Positions 2,122-31,930 of a stretch of DNA of 33,333 bases are shown in pieces. Position 1 is the first letter of the stretch; every line of letters begins with the position of its first letter. The stretch is from positions 1 through 33,333 of the IMG/VR virus record IMGVR_UViG_3300010011_000003, one strand, 5' to 3'. A model generated the notes under the pieces. The model worked only from the letters and a program-made list of their open reading frames with translations. It was not told where the DNA came from and ran no database searches. The translations under genes were made by a program, and so were the position numbers. Source of the DNA: a virus. Its lineage: Duplodnaviria > Caudoviricetes.

Positions 2122-3090
2122 TCACGAAAACACCTTCGCGTCGCGGTACGCGATCACCGTTATTCCGAGCCGGTCGTGAATCACTCTCGCCAGGTCTGTT
2201 TCGCTTTCGATCATGAGGTTGACCTCGTTGCTGCGCACGAACCTTTGCAGTGTCTCGGCCTTCCACTCTGCAGCCTCGTTGCCGTCGAGAAAGCATGGCG
2301 ATAGGAGCAGTTCGCGGTATGTGATTCCGCGTTCGCAAAGCCAGCGTTCGGTCTCTTCTCTCGCGGCTTCTCCTCGCGCCGAAATCACCAATCGTACGGC
2401 GCGATAACGCGGCCTCTGCAGCAATGCGCCGCGCTCGCAAAGGACGCCGTCAACGTCTATCGCCGCATGGCTCATGATTGGCGAATTGAGTACATGCCAT
2501 TCGAGCCAGTGAGGCAGCGGATAGTGGCGCGCGATGAAATCGACGACCGGCGCGTGGCTGTAAACTGCTGCAGTCACGATCTTTGCTGACGGCCATGTTC
2601 TCCGCGCGCGAATCGCGGTCTTGAGTATGCTCCTCGCGCTGACAGACGTATCGTCAACGATTGCCACCCTACTTGGCGGCCTGTCGCCAAGACGAGAACT
2701 GCGAGTCCCGGTTCCGGCCCAGACGACCTGAGCGCCGCAGCCAACATACAGCGGAACGTGGAGCATGCAAGCGATCACTGACGCCGGGATTATACCGCTT
2801 CTCGCCACACCGACGATCGCGTCGCAATCGCTCAGCGAGTCGAGAAGCAGCGTGGCGTCTCTGACCAGGTCCGTGATTCTGACGAAGCTGTTGCTCGCTA
2901 CAGGTTGACCGATAACTGCTGGACCTCCTCCACCCAGATTGGCTGATAGGTGGCGACAGCGTCCTTTTGCGATCACATGCTGTTGGCGTCGCCGTCCGCG
3001 CTCTGAATCACCGTAGAGTGCGCACTCGCCGTCTCGTCGCCGGTGAGCGCAGAGATCGCAAATCACTTCTGGTTGATCTCGATCACTCAC
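2122..3090 (-). CDS. Phosphoribosyltransferase / HAD-like phosphatase fusion with Cys-containing N-terminus
   Basis: PRTase motifs AIVGVARSGIIPA and VAIVDDTSVS; HAD motif I AIDVDGVLC. Start reassigned to GTG 3090, overlapping the radical SAM stop (GTGA). Confidence 0.75.
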   Translation of the reverse strand: MSDRDQPEVICDLCAHRRRDGECALYGDSERGRRRQQHVIAKGRCRHLSANLGGGGPAVIGQPVASNSFVRITDLVRDATLLLDSLSDCDAIVGVARSGIIPASVIACMLHVPLYVGCGAQVVWAGTGTRSSRLGDRPPSRVAIVDDTSVSARSILKTAIRARRTWPSAKIVTAAVYSHAPVVDFIARHYPLPHWLEWHVLNSPIMSHAAIDVDGVLCERGALLQRPRYRAVRLVISARGEAAREETERWLCERGITYRELLLSPCFLDGNEAAEWKAETLQRFVRSNEVNLMIESETDLARVIHDRLGITVIAYRDAKVFS

Positions 3091-4337
3091 TGTCGCGACG
3101 CTTCGTTCTTTTGGCCGCCTGTTGAGCGCGAGCCGCACCGCTCGTCGCACTGCGATTGCGGTTGACAGCCGATGCGCTCGACGCTGGCTTGCGCGTTGTT
3201 GGGTCTCTTGCATTGGCATTTCTGATTCGTTTTTGGCTGAACCTGTCGCCACCAGTTTGGATTCTGTTTGCCGATTTGTTCGTCGATCCACTTCACGACT
3301 GGCAGCAAGCCACGCCTGAGCTTGCACCACGTCTGATCTGGTTTCGCTGGATTGCCGTTGACGGCGCGGTTGACGTGGTAGCAACCGCCGGCGCAGCCAG
3401 CCTTGGCTTCACATGAGTGACATTGCGTGAAGACTTCTGCTGTTGCGAAGTTCTTCTTGCATGTCTCAATCGCCTTCTGCGCACTTGGACCAGGCCGCAA
3501 TGGCTTGCCTTCGAGAACGTCCCAGACATGGCCGAAACACCAGTCAGACAGAACGTCGTCGGTGACGAAGCGGTGACACGCGAAGAACGCGCCGTCCTGT
3601 CTGAGCGCGAGAAGTGACTGGCCGGCGCCACAGCCTTTGGCTTGCTCTTTATCTGGAGTCCTGATCGCCGGGCCAAGTCGCGCGAACCAGTAGTTATAGA
3701 ATGGCGGTTTGCCGGCGCGGACGTCCTCGACTAGATCGCGCGCGATCAGCTTCATTTGTTCGACGAAGGCAGCAATCGACTCGTCTGACCAAGGCTTGTA
3801 ATTGTCCGGGATCGGCGTCCAGCCGCTGCCAAAGCCATTTTTCTTCAACCACAGCCAGCTGCGATAGAGCAGCGGTGCGGCATTCTCCGCGATCGTTGAG
3901 CGACGGGCGCGGCCCTTGTCCGCAAAAATTGGAGTTAGCTCGACATATTTCTCGCTGACGTCTGGTCGGTTGAGCGCACACGCCTGAGGACAGCCGTCGA
4001 TCGACCGTTGGACGCCAATCTTGTGCGCTCGCAGAAAGTCGCGGAGCGATTCGTCGCCGACGACTCCATTCGTGACGATCGAGTATCGCACGGAATCGCC
4101 AACCGTCGCGACGACCTTTTCGATTCCGTCTCGCGCCAGAAGAGGTTCGCCGCCGAAGAAGTTGAGCGTCTTGACGCCAAGTTTCTTCACGACCTCTGGA
4201 AGACAGGCGATCATTTCGTCCGAGATATCAGGCCGCCTGATCGCTGTCGGCTGATGCAGGTAGCAATAGCGACAGTTCAGGTTGCACCTATCAGTAACGT
4301 GGAGATCGAGAGTTGAAATCTGTTTGAGTTCAGTCAT
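3087..4337 (-). CDS. Radical SAM/SPASM domain protein (peptide/protein-modifying type)
   Basis: CNLNCRYC (CX3CX2C), FFGGEPLL, TNG, SIDG; SPASM GCGAG..ACHRF..CHSC-X5-CAGGC..WC. Start ATG 4337 overlaps the upstream stop (ATGA). Confidence 0.93.
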   Translation of the reverse strand: MTELKQISTLDLHVTDRCNLNCRYCYLHQPTAIRRPDISDEMIACLPEVVKKLGVKTLNFFGGEPLLARDGIEKVVATVGDSVRYSIVTNGVVGDESLRDFLRAHKIGVQRSIDGCPQACALNRPDVSEKYVELTPIFADKGRARRSTIAENAAPLLYRSWLWLKKNGFGSGWTPIPDNYKPWSDESIAAFVEQMKLIARDLVEDVRAGKPPFYNYWFARLGPAIRTPDKEQAKGCGAGQSLLALRQDGAFFACHRFVTDDVLSDWCFGHVWDVLEGKPLRPGPSAQKAIETCKKNFATAEVFTQCHSCEAKAGCAGGCYHVNRAVNGNPAKPDQTWCKLRRGLLPVVKWIDEQIGKQNPNWWRQVQPKTNQKCQCKRPNNAQASVERIGCQPQSQCDERCGSRSTGGQKNEASRQ

Positions 4338-6040
4338 GAGTTCGTTTCGCGATCGCAGTTTTCGCAACAACCGCCTTCGTAGTCACATGTTTGGCAGCAG
4401 TCCTGTGGATAGCATGGAACGTCGCTCTCGCAGGCATAGCAGCTCGGACAATCGACGTCACACTGATAGCACGCCGCACACGTTTCGTGATCGCAGTTTT
4501 CGCAGCAGCCTCCTTCGTAATCGCATGTCTGGCAGCAATCCTGTTGGCATGGACCAGCGATGTCGCCGTTGCACGGCTCCTGATCGCAGACCTGGCAACA
4601 GGTATCAGCGTCGCAGACCTCGCACGGCATGCAACCAGAATCGCATTCGCACGGATCGCATGGATCACAGCTATAGCAGGTTTGGCATTCCGTATCGCAC
4701 GTGTAGCAGCTCTGACAATCAGGCTCACAGCTATAGCACGTCGTGCATTGGTCGAGGTCACAGGTCTGACAGCAAGTGTCGGTTTCGCAGGAGTAGCACT
4801 GTGAGCATTCGGTGTCGCAATTGTAGCAGGTCTGACATTCGGTGTCGCACGTGCATTCAACGTCACAGAAGTAGCATGATTCGCAGAATAGGCACGTCGC
4901 GCAGTCTACGAAGCAACCACCTTCGTCGCAATAAGAACAGTGATCACCGTCGCAGAAGTAGCAGACGTCGATATCACACCATTCGCATTCAAGATCGCCG
5001 TCGCAATTCTGGCACGAGTCGCCGTCGCACGTACATGCGTCGGCGCTGCATGTATCTCCAGGTGAGTCGCAGCCACATTCGCTTGAACACTCGCCTGAAT
5101 CGCAGTTGCATTCTCTGAGACAGCTTCCGCAGTCGATCCGACAGCCGCCTTCTTCGCAGTTCTGGCACACGTCAACGTCGCAATAGAAGCAGACGTCTAC
5201 GTAGCACGTATTGCAATTAGTGTCGGTGTTGCAGCTGACGCAGGTGTCGCCGTCGCAATTGCATTGATCACCTTCGCAGTTGCACTCAACGTCACAGCTA
5301 CAATCACCAGTGCCGCATGTATCGCCGTCGCAATCGCAATCACCGGTGCAGCTATCAGTCGTGCATTCCTGATCGCAAGAGCCACTACATGAATCGTTGA
5401 ACGGTTCGCATGCTGAGCAATCGGCGCAATCGGCTGAGTTGCAAGGATCGCATGGATCGCACGACGTACACTGCTCGTCACACCTCACAATGAACCAGAG
5501 GATCCAGCCGCGGTGGCGAACGAATCGAGCGACCACCTTCGTTCCAGCTGGCACTGGTCCTCCAGGAAGCTGCACCCAGTCGGCAACGCGGCCGTACTCG
5601 TCTTTGATCGTGATCGTTCCATATTCTTTCGTCGAAATCGACGCTGAGCCGCAACAGCTCAAGCTCGATTGGAGTGTTCCTTCGACGATCCAGGCCTCAG
5701 GCGGAACCCAAATCTGAAAGCCGGATTCACCAAGAGGAATGCCGAACACGACGCCGCCCTTGCGGCAAATAGCAGCAAAGCCAATGGCGTCGTGAAGCGT
5801 GACCTCTGTATCGGAATCGACGACCCATTCGCCACTACGCAAGACGAGAGGGTTCGCCTTGGCTGATTTTATCTCTTCGCCTTCATTCTGTGGAAAATCC
5901 TCTTTGAGTTTGAATGGAATCAGCTCGAATCCATGGCCTGGAGTCCCGGCGCCAGACGACAACGATCCAACGAGTCGTCCTTCAACTTGTCTGACGACTC
6001 GCGAGATTCGTTGGATCGACCGCGACGATAACTTGGCCAT
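4334..6040 (-). CDS. Putative tail protein with a ~380-aa Cys/Asp/Glu-rich C-terminal region; probable radical SAM substrate
   Basis: Ordinary ~185-aa N-domain, then about 100 Cys (hand count) in CxxC-D/E units. Second gene after the tape measure and coupled to both neighbours. Confidence 0.8.
   Translation of the reverse strand: MAKLSSRSIQRISRVVRQVEGRLVGSLSSGAGTPGHGFELIPFKLKEDFPQNEGEEIKSAKANPLVLRSGEWVVDSDTEVTLHDAIGFAAICRKGGVVFGIPLGESGFQIWVPPEAWIVEGTLQSSLSCCGSASISTKEYGTITIKDEYGRVADWVQLPGGPVPAGTKVVARFVRHRGWILWFIVRCDEQCTSCDPCDPCNSADCADCSACEPFNDSCSGSCDQECTTDSCTGDCDCDGDTCGTGDCSCDVECNCEGDQCNCDGDTCVSCNTDTNCNTCYVDVCFYCDVDVCQNCEEGGCRIDCGSCLRECNCDSGECSSECGCDSPGDTCSADACTCDGDSCQNCDGDLECEWCDIDVCYFCDGDHCSYCDEGGCFVDCATCLFCESCYFCDVECTCDTECQTCYNCDTECSQCYSCETDTCCQTCDLDQCTTCYSCEPDCQSCYTCDTECQTCYSCDPCDPCECDSGCMPCEVCDADTCCQVCDQEPCNGDIAGPCQQDCCQTCDYEGGCCENCDHETCAACYQCDVDCPSCYACESDVPCYPQDCCQTCDYEGGCCENCDRETNS
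4352..4543 (-). repeat. 54-bp direct repeat encoding QDCCQTCDYEGGCCENCD twice
   Basis: Copies at 4352-4405 and 4490-4543 differ at 7 positions, all synonymous. Confidence 0.9.
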
Positions 6041-19240: not shown

Positions 19241-19915
19241 TTAGGCATTCCGCCAACGCCAATAGACAAAATTATCCAGCGAACCCAGGTGCGCGAACTG
19301 CGGATCAAAGAGCGTGCACAAGCGCACGCTACGATACGATCCTTGGAGTTCTGCTACTTTGTCGTAATGACTTAGATAAGGAAGTTCGTTGGCGACGACG
19401 TAGGCCCAAACGTCCATCCAGGACCATGTCGCCAATGGCCACGATTCGTCCATAACAATGGTCTCATGTCTCTTGATCCGCCGCTTGCGGTTGCAACTCT
19501 CTTCGGCACGTAAGCCAACGAATGCGCGCCGATAACCACGACCCTTCAGTCGCGGAACGACGCGGCCAATAAATTCCGGCGCGAACACCGCCCAATCCGG
19601 ACGACCAGCTTCGTATTGTTCCGACGTGTAGATTTCCAAATTGACCGCACCCATTGCGATTGCATTTTGGACAATTTCATTCTCGATCTCACGCGGCATG
19701 AAGCCCGGACCATAATCCCAGTGGACGACCAGAATCTTCGGCGCTTGCTGCAAGACAAGGTGGAGCAGCACCATCGAGTCCTTGCCGCCGGAATAGGAGA
19801 CGTAACACCGCGCCTTCAACGCTTTGGCTATCTCGACACGCGACTGCTCCACCTTGGCGACATGCTCAGGCAGCCGCGCGTAAGCCATGAATGTCTCGCG
19901 CCATTCGTCCTTCAT
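19241..19915 (-). CDS. cysH: CysH-like (PAPS reductase family) protein of the type IV-B locus
   Basis: PP-loop SYSGGKDS, GLRAEES..R, PLATWSWMDVWAY. ATG 19915 overlaps the csf3 stop. Confidence 0.88.
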   Translation of the reverse strand: MKDEWRETFMAYARLPEHVAKVEQSRVEIAKALKARCYVSYSGGKDSMVLLHLVLQQAPKILVVHWDYGPGFMPREIENEIVQNAIAMGAVNLEIYTSEQYEAGRPDWAVFAPEFIGRVVPRLKGRGYRRAFVGLRAEESCNRKRRIKRHETIVMDESWPLATWSWMDVWAYVVANELPYLSHYDKVAELQGSYRSVRLCTLFDPQFAHLGSLDNFVYWRWRNA

Positions 19916-20559
19916 TTCAGCTTGACCTTCGCTCCTGGAGGAACGCACATGGCTACGTTCTGCGCCGCCCAAAATGGCGGCTTCCAAGCCAGCGGATAGG
20001 CGCACTCGTATTCGCGCGCAGCCTCCACAGGAATCGGCCGCATAGCCACGCCGTCGCGCGTGATCGACCAGTCGTGATCGATCTGCTCGATCCGCATTTG
20101 TTTGATTAGCCCCCAGCCCATGCGAATGTTGTCGCCAAGGTGGGTCAAATCAGCGAAGAGTTCTTCGAGGAGGTCTTTTCGACCATGCGCGTAGAACGTG
20201 ACTCGCAGTGACGGATTGTACACCCCGGCCAGTCGCCAGGCGCGAAAGTAGCCCGACGCGATGTCGAGCTTGCCGCGAGACATGAGATCAGGTTCTGGCC
20301 GCTTGACGTAATTCACCGCGCGATAATCTTCCTCCTCGAAAACGCCGATACTCGCGCACGGAATTCCGTTCTTGAGCGTGATCGTTCGCTTAAACTGCTT
20401 CTCGTCAATCGGCGTCGGCGTCTTGCTGTCGAATTGATTTGGATCGTTGGCGCGATGCCAGATCAAATGGCCGACGATTCCGTCCAAGTGAATCCAGCGG
20501 TGATTCAGCATGAGCGGAAACGCGAGATCGAATGTGATCTTCAGCGGCTTCGCCTTCAT
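19912..20559 (-). CDS. csf3: Type IV CRISPR-associated Csf3 (Cas5 group)
   Basis: IHLDGIV, SG.FRAW, VTFYAHG, LTHLG..MGWG.I Gly loop, MRPIP, WKPPFW. Confidence 0.85.
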   Translation of the reverse strand: MKAKPLKITFDLAFPLMLNHRWIHLDGIVGHLIWHRANDPNQFDSKTPTPIDEKQFKRTITLKNGIPCASIGVFEEEDYRAVNYVKRPEPDLMSRGKLDIASGYFRAWRLAGVYNPSLRVTFYAHGRKDLLEELFADLTHLGDNIRMGWGLIKQMRIEQIDHDWSITRDGVAMRPIPVEAAREYECAYPLAWKPPFWAAQNVAMCVPPGAKVKLK

Positions 20560-21356
20560 GCGATCTCCTTGATCAGGTCCTTGATTGCCTCCGCGCTCGC
20601 CGTCATATGCTCGACGTATGGCGAATCGTCAGGAACCTCCTGGTATTGCGGGTCGATTTCGCCGAAGCCTGAGGCCGAGCGCGCACCAATGAATGGCTTC
20701 TCACGCCACAGCTTGATCGCACGACCAATCGTCGCCACGGCCATGGCGTCTCGGTCGTTGACCTGGAAGTAGTGCCATAAGGTCGTTCCAGCCAGGAGGA
20801 CCTCAAAGTCCACCTTCATTTGGACGGCCTGATCGTCTTCTTCTCGCTCGCGGACTTCATCGCGGCGCGTGATGAACTCCTGACCGATCAACTCGCGAAT
20901 CGGCAGGAACTCGCCTTGCAACTCCGGCATGAGAACGCCAACCGTCTCCTGCGCGATCGGCACCGCATGACCGACGATCAGTTGGCCAGCAATAATCTGG
21001 TTGCCAATCGAGCAGCCCAGCAGGCGAATCAACGGAATGGTGTCGCGAAGCCGCGTCTTCATGTCGAGATCAATGCGGCCAGTCGATTCACCAAGTTCGA
21101 GGACGCCCCCGCTGGCCAGAATGTGCACCGCCTTCTTTGGCAACTCCTGAATGCCGCAGAGTTCGATCATGTCGCGAACGAGTAGACGGCGAATGACCCC
21201 GCGAATGGCATTGCCAGAAATGTACGGAATGCGAACACGCCGGCTGTCGCGCACGATCGTCACCGCGCGAAGCATGGGTGTCGATCCTGTCTTTTCGTCA
21301 CCGCCGTGGTGGAGTGCGCTCAAGACTCTGATTCGTCCTTCGATTCGCTTTGCCAC
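20556..21356 (-). CDS. csf2: Type IV CRISPR-associated Csf2 (Cas7 group)
   Basis: LSALHHG, IPYISGNAIRGVIRR, SGG.L, PLIRLLG, GQL.VG, IGARSASGFG. Confidence 0.9.
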   Translation of the reverse strand: MAKRIEGRIRVLSALHHGGDEKTGSTPMLRAVTIVRDSRRVRIPYISGNAIRGVIRRLLVRDMIELCGIQELPKKAVHILASGGVLELGESTGRIDLDMKTRLRDTIPLIRLLGCSIGNQIIAGQLIVGHAVPIAQETVGVLMPELQGEFLPIRELIGQEFITRRDEVREREEDDQAVQMKVDFEVLLAGTTLWHYFQVNDRDAMAVATIGRAIKLWREKPFIGARSASGFGEIDPQYQEVPDDSPYVEHMTASAEAIKDLIKEIA

Positions 21357-21685
21357 TGCTTTCTCCTTTCTGAGTATGAGACGGTACCAACGTGAATGTG
21401 ACGCGAGAGAATATAATCCAAGACCTCTTCGCGCTGAGCTTCAAGCTTCTCAATGAGTGGAATGCCCTTTTCCGGAATGCTCTGCAGCCCAAAGTAATTG
21501 CAGAGCTTTGAGACGAATTCCGCCACGTCGCGACATGAGCACGCGGCGCGAATTCTATGGTTCCACACGTCAACTGGATTGCGGAGCCGCAGCTTCTTCC
21601 AGTTGACGCGACCGGCGATGATTGCCAGCAGCTCGATCACGTCGCCAATAAATGGCAACGGCGAGTTTCCAATCGAGTCGGCCAT
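21320..21685 (-). CDS. cas11: Cas11-like small helical subunit
   Basis: Small alpha-helical ORF between csf1 and csf2; AGGAG RBS before ATG 21685; assignment mainly from synteny. Confidence 0.6.
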   Translation of the reverse strand: MADSIGNSPLPFIGDVIELLAIIAGRVNWKKLRLRNPVDVWNHRIRAACSCRDVAEFVSKLCNYFGLQSIPEKGIPLIEKLEAQREEVLDYILSRHIHVGTVSYSERRKQWQSESKDESES

Positions 21686-22262
21686 GGTATTTCTCCTGAA
21701 CTTGATCCAGAAAATCAGGCGACAATTTCTGATAACTTTTTGCTCCAAACGTGGCTTCCTGGACTTCCGACTTTGGAAGCACGAGCAGCTGCTCGATCAT
21801 GCTAGCCATTGTCTTCGTCTCGCGCCGTTCCAGGAAGACTGGCTTATCACAAAGATCGGTGTAGACGTAAATGCCGTTCATGTTTGGAGTTGTGACTGCG
21901 AACGGCCACGCGAGCCACGTGTGCTTTTGACCGCTGAACGTGAGTTGGACGCCTGTTGGCTCGTCACACTGGTCGATCAGCTTGCGGACCTTGTCCATGC
22001 CGTCGGTCTCGGCGTTGATCCAGGTGATTGCGCTGCGCGTCACGATCCAGGAGCGATTTCTGAATGGCTTGTGTTCGAGCGCCGCAAGGCAGCTCACGCA
22101 GAATCCGTCGCCATTGCGGAGTTGATAGGCACTGAGAAATGTCTTCGAGTCGCGCTCCATGCCGACGGTATGTCGGCCACACACGCGGCATGTGACAACT
22201 GTGCCGCAGTTGATCGGCTCGGAGTGATTGAACAGAAGATCACTAATCGTCAATGTATGCAT
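21570..22262 (-). CDS. csf1: Type IV Csf1 (Cas8-like) subunit
   Basis: Zn finger CRVCG..FCVSC, SGQKH.W; first gene of the csf cluster. Confidence 0.75.
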   Translation of the reverse strand: MHTLTISDLLFNHSEPINCGTVVTCRVCGRHTVGMERDSKTFLSAYQLRNGDGFCVSCLAALEHKPFRNRSWIVTRSAITWINAETDGMDKVRKLIDQCDEPTGVQLTFSGQKHTWLAWPFAVTTPNMNGIYVYTDLCDKPVFLERRETKTMASMIEQLLVLPKSEVQEATFGAKSYQKLSPDFLDQVQEKYHGRLDWKLAVAIYWRRDRAAGNHRRSRQLEEAAAPQSS

Positions 22263-25814: not shown

Positions 25815-26090
25815 TCACCATAACCTCAGTCTTGGCCGGTATAACGTGGCGTCTTTGACCGGGTAGCTTTGATCCAGGCAGTCGAAGAGCCGATCCACAA
25901 CCTCCAGCAGAAGATCAGACGCTGGAATCGTGAAGATTCCCATGGCCCACGCCCAGATCAGCTCGCGTCCTTCCCACGTGCGTAAGTCGTCATAAGGCAG
26001 AACCAACGCAAATTCGTACTTTGGCGTGACGAGCGTCACTTTGGCTCGCTTCTCTCCGTCTTGGTAGAAGACGCTGATTGAGTAGTGCAT
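25815..26090 (-). CDS. Hypothetical protein (91 aa)
   Basis: AGGAGG RBS inside the 3' end of csrA. Confidence 0.6.
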   Translation of the reverse strand: MHYSISVFYQDGEKRAKVTLVTPKYEFALVLPYDDLRTWEGRELIWAWAMGIFTIPASDLLLEVVDRLFDCLDQSYPVKDATLYRPRLRLW

Positions 26091-26245
26091 AGCCCAGCCT
26101 CCTGCAATTCTTCGCGTAGAATCTTCACGTCCTTCGGAGCCTCGACCCCAAGACGCACAGAACCGGTCTTGGTCTGGCAGACCGTGATCACGATACCGTT
26201 CGAAAACAAAAGCTTTTGACCGTCCTTCCGTGTGAGTACAAGCAT
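26036..26245 (-). CDS. csrA: CsrA/RsmA-family RNA-binding regulator
   Basis: MLVLTRK.G..I.ITV..VRLGVEAPKDVKILREEL. Confidence 0.93.
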   Translation of the reverse strand: MLVLTRKDGQKLLFSNGIVITVCQTKTGSVRLGVEAPKDVKILREELQEAGLCTTQSASSTKTERSEPK

Positions 26246-28112: not shown

Positions 28113-28979
28113 CTACTCCAGCGAAGGAAGAATCACCGATCCCCCTGACGCAATGCGTGGATCGACATAATGCTCGATCGTCGTCTTTGCCGACGTGTGG
28201 CCGAGCAGCGTCTGCGCTGCTGCGATTCCAGCTTGCGCTGCGGCCAGCGACGCAGCCGTTCGGCGAATCTTGTGAAAGAGTCCAAAATGTTCGCCTGGAA
28301 GCGGTTCGAGATTGGCCGGGCGCGCGATCTTCTTCCGGAATGTCGTGAAGAAATGCCTTCTGCAGTGGGGCCATTCCCAGACCAACTCGCGTTTCGGCCA
28401 CTGCAATTCTTTGATCTTCGCGATCACGTAATCTGGCAGCTTGAAGATTTGCTCGCTCTTGGTCTTGCTGTTCTCGGCGCGCAGGACGATGAAGCCTTTT
28501 TTCAGGTCGATATCCCGCCATTTCACTTTGAGCAGCGCGCCGATACGCGAACCTGTGTGGTAGGCAACGGCGATCAGCGTTGGCCACCAAAGCCTGGCCA
28601 ATTGGACGCCGACGCGCCCTTGAAGGCAGTTGGCGACGCGATACAGCCGTTGAAACTCGTCGAGGCCCCAAGCATGTGGCGTGCGCCGAGCGCACTTGAT
28701 CTTTGGCTTTGGTGGTAGCTTGCGGATATAACCACACTCCTGAGCGAATCTCAGGAGCGAATACAGACGCCGAATGTAGCCAGCCTGAGTATGGCTGCTC
28801 GCAGTGAATCGCCGAAGCCAAAGCAAGTATCGGCCAATGGCTTCGACATCGATCTTGCGAATGTCGACGACTCCAGTTGCAGCTTCGAATCGCGCCGCGG
28901 TGATCAGGATTAGCTTCGCGTAGTCGTGAGAGAGTGGGCGCGAGATAATGTAGAGATTTGCCAACTTCGAAAGTGTCAT
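28113..28979 (-). CDS. int: Tyrosine recombinase/integrase (no arm-binding N-domain evident)
   Basis: Catalytic set TGSR, SKT, HKIRR, LLGH, HY; GAGGAGG RBS. Confidence 0.9.
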   Translation of the reverse strand: MTLSKLANLYIISRPLSHDYAKLILITAARFEAATGVVDIRKIDVEAIGRYLLWLRRFTASSHTQAGYIRRLYSLLRFAQECGYIRKLPPKPKIKCARRTPHAWGLDEFQRLYRVANCLQGRVGVQLARLWWPTLIAVAYHTGSRIGALLKVKWRDIDLKKGFIVLRAENSKTKSEQIFKLPDYVIAKIKELQWPKRELVWEWPHCRRHFFTTFRKKIARPANLEPLPGEHFGLFHKIRRTAASLAAAQAGIAAAQTLLGHTSAKTTIEHYVDPRIASGGSVILPSLE

Positions 28980-29108
28980 GCTGCTGCCTCCTCAGGTGCA
29001 AGGCGGCCCCGTAGGCCGCCGTGCCCCGTGAAGGCCGCGAACCGCAACGTCTGCTCCTGATTCGAGCATAATTCGCGATTCGCAGTTCTAAAAATTCAGA
29101 AAAAATTG

Positions 29109-29294: not shown

Positions 29295-29513
29295 GGCCAG
29301 ACCTCCTGTATTAGAGGCTGCGACGGCGTGCTCACACCGCGTGAGCAGGACTTGTCCCAGTGGGCTTTAGGACACGCCAAAAATTTGCTGCCTGATCGCC
29401 GTCGCAGATTCCTCTCGTCGATTGCGGGCGAGACGCCCAACCAGTTTTTGGGCACCCGCTCAGTCGCCGCAGCGGCGGCTAAGAAAGGTGCCAATGATTT
29501 GGTAACTGCCTAT

Positions 29514-29542
29514 AGTCTAGGAAAGGTCCTAGGGTTTGTCAA
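29514..29542 (-). promoter_or_regulatory. Early-operon sigma70-type promoter with CTAGG operator-like sites
   Basis: TTGACA (29537-42), 17 bp, TAGACT (29514-19); spacer contains CCTAGG and CTTTCCTAG. Confidence 0.7.
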
Positions 29543-29583: not shown

Positions 29584-29790
29584 TTAGGACGAGACTTGCG
29601 ACGGATTGCGTTGCTTGCGCTCGCGTTCCAGACGAGCGACTTCGCGTTCTGGAATGGCTCTCACATAGCCGAATTTTACGGATTCGATGCGCCCTTCACA
29701 AATGAATTGGTGCACGCGCCCGGGCGACACTTTGAGTCGCTCGGCCACTTCACGAACTGTATAGTATTTTTCACCTTGGAGCATGCTCAT
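29584..29790 (-). CDS. HTH_17 (excisionase/MerR-like) DNA-binding protein
   Basis: YYTVREVAERLKVSPGRVHQFICEGRIESVKFG. Confidence 0.85.
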   Translation of the reverse strand: MSMLQGEKYYTVREVAERLKVSPGRVHQFICEGRIESVKFGYVRAIPEREVARLERERKQRNPSQVSS

Positions 29791-29827: not shown

Positions 29828-29900
29828 AATTAAGGCAGGTGTTACCAGGCTCATTGGCACCGCCGAAGCCCCCTGGTCCTCGCGGATCCAGGCACCTGCC
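29828..29900 (-). ncRNA. Structured RNA unit 1 (three-way junction; putative antisense to early leader)
   Basis: Outer stem GGCAGGTG/CACCTGCC, GCGA-tetraloop hairpin, second hairpin, 3' TTAATT; complementary to the leader at 29487-29510. Confidence 0.55.
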
Positions 29901-29910
29901 AAGGGAACGC

Positions 29911-29984
29911 ATGAAAGCTAGAATTAAGGCAGACGCACAGGTAGGGGCAGCCACCTGATTAGCGCTCGTGGCGCCGCGTCTGCC
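29911..29984 (-). ncRNA. Structured RNA unit 2 (three-way junction; putative antisense to late leader)
   Basis: Outer stem GGCAGACGC/GCGTCTGCC, two inner hairpins, 3' TTAATT tail; complementary to the leader at 18973-19003. Confidence 0.55.
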
Positions 29985-29987
29985 AGA

Positions 29988-30041
29988 GAGCGGGAGACGG
30001 GATTCGAACCCGCGACCCCCAGCTTGGGAAGCTAGCGCTCT
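29988..30041 (-). other. attP core: 3' two-thirds of tRNA-Gly(CCC)
   Basis: AGAGCG-CTAGC-TTCCCAA-GCTGG-GGGTC-GCGGG-TTCGAAT-CCCGT-CTCCCGC-T; the 5' acceptor strand and most of the D arm are absent. Confidence 0.85.
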
Positions 30042-30054
30042 GTGTCAAGGCAAG

Positions 30055-30084
30055 AAAAGAAAAAACCCGGCATGAAGCCGGGCT
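30055..30084 (-). terminator. Rho-independent terminator upstream of attP
   Basis: CCCGGC-TTCAT-GCCGGG followed by TTTTTTCTTTT. Confidence 0.85.
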
Positions 30085-30795: not shown

Positions 30796-31222
30796 GTTTT
30801 CGTCCTCCTCTGTCTCTGGTACGTTTACCTCTGGCGAAGCCTAACACGCATTCTCTGCTTAGTTACTCCCACTCATCAGGTTCGGTAGCAACCACTCTGT
30901 AGAATTCGTTTCCGTTCTCGTCGGCTACTACCCAGTCCACATCTGGATATTGCCCTCCCAGAAAATCTGCCATCTCGCATGCCTCCACGAAGGATGTAAA
31001 CCAACGATCCTCGTCACTGTAGAGCCAGCAGCCGTCCGTCTCGAAGTGGCCGTCTCTCACAACGAAAATCTGGTATCGTTTGCTCATTGGCGTCGCCATT
31101 GTTACTCCTCTTCTTCCAACGCCCTCGAAATTGATTGGAATGTCGTGCCACCTAATCATGTCTTCATCCTCCTCTGCGTACGGTACGTTTGTGCCTAGTG
31201 AACATTAACACGCCTTTTCCGC
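30753..31222. repeat. Diverged ~105-bp direct repeats (30753-30858 and 31117-31222)
   Basis: Shared CAACGCCCTCGAAATTGATTGGAATG..TAATCATGT..TCCTCCTCTG..GGTACGTTT..TAACACGC at a 364-bp offset. Confidence 0.9.
30863..31099 (-). CDS. Hypothetical acidic protein between the repeats
   Basis: GAGGAG RBS before ATG 31099; an in-frame upstream start at 31159 lies within the repeat copy. Confidence 0.6.
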   Translation of the reverse strand: MATPMSKRYQIFVVRDGHFETDGCWLYSDEDRWFTSFVEACEMADFLGGQYPDVDWVVADENGNEFYRVVATEPDEWE

Positions 31223-31564
31223 CAACTTGGCGATCTTGCTCAGCGCCGTCTGGCTCGGCAGCTGTTGGCCGCGCTCCCAGCGTGAGACGGTGATGGCGCG
31301 AACACGCAGTGTCGCCGCGAACTCCTCCTGACTCAGGCCGGCGCCGACTCGCAACGTCCGAATCCACCGCGCCGCGGCCTCGACGAGCGGCTGAAGAGCC
31401 TCCTTTTGACTCTCTGAGCCGTTCGAGCACGGCTCTCGCGGCACGCCGTCCTTCGCCGACGTGATCGCCCAACGCGGCTTGTCTCCGCAGTGGCGATCGA
31501 CCCAGAGAAACCAACTCTGGGATCCAATCATGAATCGCTTTGCTATTTCCCACGCCATGGTCAC
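31205..31564 (-). CDS. XRE-family HTH protein (C-terminal HTH)
   Basis: IRTLRVGAGLSQEEFAATLRVRAITVSRWERG..P; AAGGAGGAG RBS. Confidence 0.85.
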   Translation of the reverse strand: MTMAWEIAKRFMIGSQSWFLWVDRHCGDKPRWAITSAKDGVPREPCSNGSESQKEALQPLVEAAARWIRTLRVGAGLSQEEFAATLRVRAITVSRWERGQQLPSQTALSKIAKLAEKAC

Positions 31565-31901: not shown

Positions 31902-31930
31902 AATATATCGCCTAGTCGGCGTCTAGTCAA
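31902..31930 (-). promoter_or_regulatory. Sigma70-type promoter with CGACTAGGCG site
   Basis: TTGACT (31925-30), 17 bp, TATATT (31902-07). Confidence 0.7.

Follow-up and report, generated by a model that had tools for sequence, protein, structure and literature searches.

The C4 RNA of phages P1 and P7 (RF01695) is a processed small RNA of three helices that recognises its target through two short seeds, with a specificity set by a few nucleotides (PMC5320573), and its alignment displays a short capped hairpin, a hairpin with a variable loop and a short junction (PMC2864571). CI of P4, which has been called a structural homolog of C4 (PMC3632133), is cut out of a longer transcript and acts as an antisense RNA, blocking expression of replication genes through premature termination of transcription (PMC4825925); it pairs with the flanking seqA and seqC on its own transcript. 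Integration has been tied to immunity in mycobacteriophage BPs, where attP lies inside a protein repressor gene, integration turns the repressor on by removing a degradation tag, and the integrase is devoid of an arm-binding domain (PMC3694055). In ICEKp1 the integrated element is transcribed from the promoter of a host tRNA; the read-through product is the integrase mRNA, the co-transcript is cleaved by RNase E, and the excised circle relies on a separate promoter (PMC13023037). Here we describe a phage locus that resembles each of these systems in part, with a candidate antisense RNA, unit 1, that abuts attP. In the literature that we searched, in which few subscription journals were covered, there is no account of the unit 1 family, nor of an antisense repressor driven by the promoter of a host tRNA.

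The window, i.e. the whole 33.3-kb stretch of DNA analysed here, is a linear record from a temperate tailed phage of the HK97-like kind, and its annotated genes all lie on the minus strand, as do the features below unless stated otherwise. Both ends fall inside open reading frames and CheckV estimates completeness at 46%. Despite this estimate, we infer that little of the phage genome is missing, since in a relative a LamG-like gene sits directly 5’ of the homolog of the right-end frame, which is the order given by joining the window ends, and the complete relative G551 measures 34.5 kb. Because the relatives of the integrase carry names from Thermogutta assemblies, and the tRNA-Gly(CCC) fragment at attP is 100% identical over 55 nt to the whole tRNA-Gly(CCC) of Thermogutta genome G001, in which the site is empty, the host is likely Thermogutta or a close planctomycete. 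Following the transcription direction past the two RNA units, we find promoter-like P1, a gene for an HTH_17 protein, promoter-like P2, a structured leader, a small SAP-domain gene, the integrase, YqaJ, RecT and replication genes. The tyrosine integrase (28113-28979, 288 aa) is part of the P2 operon, which we take to be the early operon.

Several other elements of this genome deserve mention. A conserved GC-rich element right before the integrase start (28975-29040), common to many relatives, may gate integrase translation. The phage encodes a CsrA homolog (26036-26245) that is also present in G551. In the tail region, a 568-aa Cys-rich repeat frame (4334-6040), possibly a modified virion protein, adjoins a PapB-like radical SAM/SPASM gene (3087-4370; the match, with E 5e-41, lies below the cut-off). 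Upstream of attP, promoter-like sites at 31930-31902 and 32301-32273, the former with paired CTAG motifs as in P2, head a block of small genes that includes a second small HTH protein (HTH_3, 31205-31564) and extends to the attP terminator. In contig L120, otherwise near-identical, the block is different.

The arrangement at attP is as reported in the preliminary description. An intrinsic-terminator-like hairpin at 30052-30084 (hairpin and T tract, 30084-30064) closes the upstream gene block and is predicted to act as an insulator; a match to SorX (E 0.0009, under the gathering score) was discarded as a reflection of this terminator. It is followed by the tRNA-Gly(CCC) 3’ fragment that forms the attP identity block (29989-30041), which ARAGORN does not call as a gene, by a 4-nt spacer (29988-29985), by unit 2 (57 nt, 29928-29984) and by unit 1 (67 nt, 29834-29900), whose start we place 2 nt further out than had been implied before. 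Both units are predicted to fold as three-helix junctions, with z-scores of -3.8 for unit 2 and -2.7 for unit 1 (short flanks), and unit 1 consists of a closing stem, a GNRA-capped hairpin, a seed hairpin and a 5-nt junction. The outer stems of the two units do covary as claimed: five pairs are in common, and the inner pairs differ with pairing kept. The 11 nt at the 3’ end are common to both units and have no third copy in the window. This tail is not a family trait, as relatives of unit 1 carry other T-rich tails (at least 5 T within 8 nt in 16 of 23 units). At an E-value of at most 1, neither unit has a match in Rfam 15. On the plus strand, a promoter-like site (29896-29924) points antisense across unit 2. 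Tandem palindromic repeats with the 11-nt end motif, but with no tRNA link, were seen in the viral contigs L015, L078 and L110, and an unrelated Y-shaped palindromic element immediately follows a tRNA-like 3’ end in L292 (G020:C269, near 14800).

Searches by integrase, DNA, pattern and covariance model yielded a unit 1 family of 23 non-duplicate loci including the window, in Thermogutta-type phages and prophages and behind tRNAs, either whole or as 3’ fragments, for ten amino acids. This count excludes L120, with its 99.5% identity to the window, repeat copies of contigs already included, such as L146, the truncated L172, and the chance model hits L173 and L174. All 13 units that were aligned start with GG at the closing stem, where RNase P would cut the 5’ end of a C4-type RNA. 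In this alignment 99.6% of the cells are paired, with two-sided changes at five pairs, a result reached in 0 of 500 shuffles, controls that are biased in favour of the fold in that the consensus structure was derived from the same 13 sequences. Covariance model R1 matched 9 of 150 family genomes, six of them strongly, and model R2, run on samples of 150 genomes each, matched 3 from the order and 1 from the phylum, every time at a locus already known to us, so that no new members were added. Integrase searches of viral contigs gave no confirmed member; a scan of 25 of 64 parts of the viral contigs for the shared-end pattern gave at least 119 loci, none close to a tRNA T-loop; and in annotated phages the tRNA fragment alone was matched among the 20 matches listed. 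Across these searches the range of the family is narrow. Relic units were found behind host tRNAs at L172:1501-1550, L137:1495-1568 and L171:1501-1576; the one in L172, behind a tRNA-Val, retains just the first hairpin and a T tract and is terminator-like.

Unit 1 shares the short capped hairpin, variable-loop hairpin and short junction of the C4 alignment, and, as expected of a C4-type RNA, it has a three-helix junction and two seeds that change in step with their target in the phage. It therefore likely works like the immunity RNAs C4 of phage P1 and CI of P4, with the same topology, and remote homology is possible. There are also differences. Unit 1 counts 67 nt versus about 77 nt for C4, has no visible promoter of its own, unlike C4, and occurs in Planctomycetota, whereas C4 ranges over Proteobacteria and their phages. 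C4 of phage P1 occludes a ribosome site, while the predicted target of unit 1 is the 5’ end of the transcript from a separate promoter. Where P4 CI pairs with two sequences flanking it, unit 1 has one two-part target past the HTH gene and a second promoter; moreover, P4 is a satellite phage and the carrier of unit 1 a full tailed phage. RF01695 itself gave no match in the window, in 11 related loci or, at an E-value of at most 1, in 5 records; in this last search no control genome passed the cut-off, which leaves its sensitivity undemonstrated.

The preliminary description had missed the target of unit 1. Seed a in the junction (29841-29847) is complementary to 29506-29500, and the 11-nt seed b (29851-29861) to 29497-29487, so that together they would recognise a two-part site (29487-29506) made up of the first ~20 nt after promoter-like P2 (29514-29542), at 330 nt from unit 1. 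When the pairing rule was set on the first 14 loci (see below) and then applied to each whole locus on both strands, the highest-ranking two-part match fell on the P2 5’ end for 20 of 23 (tied in L177), and across the 33-kb window this site is the unique top one. Of the three misses, L137 and L171 are without P2 and relic-like, and L178 has one mismatch. Where the -10 box could be matched, in 19 loci, the site lies 6-9 nt downstream of it, and the AA between the two target halves is invariant in 19 aligned loci. By unconstrained duplex energy of the whole seed hairpin, the P2 site ranked first in only 10 of 20 loci; taking the seed region alone placed it ahead of all other non-self sites in the window.

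Do seeds and targets also change together? In a first test of 10 distinct pairs from 14 loci (L137, having no leader, was left out), the mean duplex energy was -27.1 kcal/mol for cognate and -16.8 for non-cognate partners, the cognate came out on top in 9 of 10 rows, and none of 200,000 permutations reached the cognate score. For 18 distinct pairs, the cognate mean was 15.7 paired nt versus 7.4, with the cognate best or tied in 17 rows. The eight loci found later gave 4 of 100,000 permutations by themselves; two of them were found via the leader, so that only their variable positions are independent. Furthermore, in L170, L179, L234, L246 and L251 even those seed positions that vary least across the family have changed in parallel with the target. 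Related phages have seeds in common and the permutations ignore kinship, so these counts overstate independence. Judged from this covariation, pairing of unit 1 with the P2 leader is highly probable. For unit 1, this gives strong support to the RNA-based regulation proposed in the preliminary description, which had treated both units alike; unit 2, in contrast, is without homolog or target, as discussed below. Three loci (L122:900-1080, L123:1020-1226 and L124:596-778) share a deletion that has left only the last 44 integrase codons, yet they have kept the cognate pairing, which counts against the model preferred below.

The T-rich tails in 16 of 23 units, together with the truncated copy in L172 that consists of a hairpin and a T tract, would also fit elements that act in cis only, as replacement terminators or 3’ stabilisers of the restored tRNA. 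Such a role may hold for unit 2. However, it leaves the covariation of seeds with a target 330 nt away unexplained, is contradicted for unit 1, and as an account of both units we regard it as very unlikely.

So what would binding of unit 1 do to the P2 transcript? Near its start the transcript carries a conserved structured leader (29424-29493) whose first helix contains the target of seed b: in minimum free energy folds, target half b is paired in this helix in 17 of 18 loci. When the first 21 nt are blocked, the released strand finds a new partner further along in about 12 of 18 loci, as read by eye from the folds, and the leader is predicted to refold. For the window sequence, most of the junction seed is left unpaired, and co-folding gains 4.2 kcal/mol over separate folding. 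The refolded leader is without a T tract after the new hairpin, which makes an intrinsic terminator unlikely; Rho, on the other hand, scored above the cut-off in all five host genomes. The target overlaps no ribosome site, and a TTG frame at 29494 is not conserved in relatives. Given that the integrase is encoded in the P2 operon and would be needed before the tRNA promoter is gained, and given the precedent of premature termination by P4 CI, we are reasonably confident that the outcome of binding is repressive. The opposite sign is conceivable, as IsrK of Gifsy-1 activates by opening a ribosome site (PMC4825925), and unit 1, by removing the most stable helix of the leader, might similarly open an inhibitory structure and activate the P2 operon. 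However, the need for integrase ahead of the tRNA promoter implies that the RNA-free state should be the on state, and activation therefore appears quite unlikely to us.

As P1 sits downstream of unit 1, the unit needs a source of transcription upstream. A whole tRNA lies upstream of the unit in 11 loci (Ala, Ser, Glu, Ile, Phe, His, Val) and a tRNA 3’ fragment in 10 (Gly, Ser, Phe, Pro, Cys, Val, Ile), the remaining 2 of 23 being cut by contig ends; the fragment in L251 is called a gene by ARAGORN, though a terminator abuts it. The unit begins at most 37 nt from the tRNA T-loop in 14 of 23 loci and at 317-661 nt in four, and none of the 22 loci with a visible T-loop has a terminator-like site between it and the unit. 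Through many switches of attachment site, the unit has stayed behind a tRNA end. One record of such switching is L123:101-228, where two stacked tRNA 3’ fragments, a decayed Gly and then Ser, precede the unit.

The preliminary description had proposed that a host tRNA gene restored by integration is transcribed straight into the units, and the relatives with a whole tRNA upstream and no terminator in between agree with this, at tRNAs other than tRNA-Gly(CCC). At tRNA-Gly(CCC) itself no integrated relative was found: of the matches inspected, 30 out of 44 in genomes plus 2 viral loci, four were tRNAs, none with the unit. Release of the units by tRNA processing, also suggested earlier, finds no backing as far as RNase Z is concerned, which was above the cut-off in none of five host genomes. 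As to the insulation of the RNAs in the free circle by the terminator, this is plausible for the window, but a terminator precedes the fragment in just five of 10 attP-like loci, the others besides the window being L129, L179, L246 and L251.

Scored in bits with a matrix trained on P2 sites, the host tRNA-Gly promoter reaches 16.4 and the P2 sites 12.7-20.5, whereas the attP-like loci have no conserved promoter-like site before the unit, the best being 8.1 in the window and the others at most 6.4. The site in the window is a lone -35 hexamer with a poor -10, and its 8.1 bits compare with 7.6-8.5 for three host tRNA-Ala promoters. It could thus be argued that the same antisense regulator is made in the circle as well, from a phage promoter or by leaky read-through, with an effect that depends on dose and time instead of on integration. 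Two promoter-like sites, at 31930 and 32301, are oriented toward the terminator, half of the attP-like loci are without a terminator, four units lie far from the T-loop, and the ICEKp1 circle has its own promoter (PMC13023037). Against such an ungated supply stand the scores before the unit, which are well below those of P2, and the retention of the unit behind a tRNA end despite the many attachment-site switches; on this evidence we deem it unlikely. A supply of unit 1 mainly from the host tRNA promoter is fairly probable, and integration gating of the RNA, as read from these sequences, is likely. This would liken the phage to BPs, in that integration would turn on the repressor and the integrase is without an arm-binding domain, and to ICEKp1, in that the integrated element would be transcribed from a host tRNA promoter. 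Unlike BPs, however, the regulator would be an RNA and integration would supply its promoter, with attP being a tRNA fragment outside the annotated repressor frames; and where read-through in ICEKp1 produces the integrase mRNA, here it would produce an antisense RNA opposing the integrase operon.

The RNA is probably not the sole control of this phage. We agree with the preliminary description that no CI-like repressor with a peptidase domain is present, as Peptidase_S24 has no match in the one record searched (linear, CheckV 46%). The absence of any protein regulator, however, can no longer be upheld: a 68-aa DNA-binding protein of the HTH_17/excisionase family (29584-29790) is a likely regulator, and an operator-like motif in its own promoter-like P1 (29797-29825) is shared, inverted, with P2. 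Its gene lies downstream of the unit in 19 of 19 aligned loci. The spacers of P1 and P2 are more alike within a phage (7.7) than between phages (4.5), with the cognate best or tied in 13 of 19 rows and 0 of 100,000 permutations as good, in a comparison in which P1 was misplaced in L170 and L178. The protein thus probably binds both P1 and P2, at operator-like sites that covary phage by phage. Likewise, the reported lack of a divergent switch is not fully certain, given a plus-strand promoter-like site (29488-29516) that overlaps P2. With the gene behind the unit throughout and the spacers matched within each phage, the HTH_17 protein might even be the main immunity repressor, acting at P1 and P2, with the RNA fine-tuning establishment or induction, a view partly compatible with an integration-gated RNA. 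Nevertheless, the protein matches excisionase families and may be a regulator of recombination or of early genes, the likeness of the spacers could stem from promoter duplication, and P1 needs no integration; we consider this role improbable.

In contrast to what had been proposed, equivalence of the two units finds no support, as unit 2 has no homolog outside L120 and no target. A search of 201 family genomes gave only 8 weak short matches, its pattern matched viral contigs 48 times with none tRNA-linked or internally alike, and model R1 scored it at 15.3 bits, from the outer stem alone. In the window, no complementary run of 10 nt or more exists on the coding strand. Pairing of its seeds with a sibling phage was considered and dropped, with 14 matches in 261 genomes versus 18 control matches, and the best-looking seed match sits within a membrane-protein gene. 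Other relatives (L129, L136, L139 and L178) carry unrelated hairpins in this same place, after the tRNA and before unit 1, so that the most likely reading of unit 2 is a lineage-specific accessory insert or a partial terminator; a second antisense RNA aimed at another element is possible.

Two further roles had been raised for the units. The window carries a genuine csf-like cassette of an array-less type IV-B-like kind (19241-22262) with Zn-finger-like, small, Csf2-like, Csf3-like and CysH-like genes, in which the Csf2- and Csf3-like matches lie below the curated cut-offs; a Csf2-like match was also found in Thermogutta genome G001. The preliminary description had named the units as candidate ligands of this complex, and at 57 and 67 nt they come close in size to the RNAs of ~55-60 nt that a type IV-B complex binds (PMC7937560), with unit 2 and csf co-occurring in the window. 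However, the RNA bound by that complex was heterogeneous (PMC7937560), five viral records gave a single weak Csf2 match (E 5.7e-4), and the complete relative G551 has unit 1 and the integrase with no Csf2 match, which bears on unit 1 only. Dedicated Csf ligands are therefore highly improbable. It had also been considered that the repeats are integrase arm-type DNA sites, for which the two exact 11-nt direct repeats near attP would speak. The core-binding domain of the integrase, however, begins at residue 20 and leaves no space for an N-terminal arm-binding domain; moreover, the repeated tail is not conserved and most relatives have a single unit. We consider the chance of such a function negligible.

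Taken together, our modest preference goes to a model in which a C4/CI-like antisense RNA silences the P2 operon and is gated by integration at a host tRNA. In the free circle, the upstream terminator would keep unit 1 RNA low, P2 would be on and integrase would be made. After integration, read-through from the host tRNA, together with processing, would supply unit 1 RNA. Its unpaired junction seed would capture the free 5’ end of the P2 transcript, upon which seed b would invade the first helix of the leader and the leader would refold. The transcript would then be stopped, with Rho-dependent termination as our best guess, or left untranslated, and the integrase-recombination-replication operon would be shut down once unit 1 is under the host tRNA promoter. 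The 68-aa HTH protein would probably act as a parallel regulator at operators in P1 and P2, and differences in the seeds would define immunity types. The claim in its widest form, that recombination at a tRNA gene switches on a promoterless antisense repressor that silences the integrase operon, with a prophage tied to tRNA output, more than a dozen immunity types and perhaps a second antisense RNA in unit 2, is plausible to us yet falls just short of being probable.

What would this mean for these phages? Unit 1 represents a covariation-supported family of candidate antisense RNAs, not in Rfam 15, in phages of a phylum in which phage regulation has barely been studied. Its target is predicted to the nucleotide and natural pairs with swapped seeds exist; since the hosts are likely thermophilic and orthogonal pairs of RNA and leader are numerous, these pairs could also find use as compact riboregulators. 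If the RNA is made only in the integrated state, it would be an RNA counterpart of integration-dependent immunity that links lysogeny to host tRNA output. Swaps of the two seeds would then give more than a dozen immunity types within one phage family, and with the silence of the prophage tied to transcription of a host tRNA, a drop in tRNA synthesis could trigger induction.
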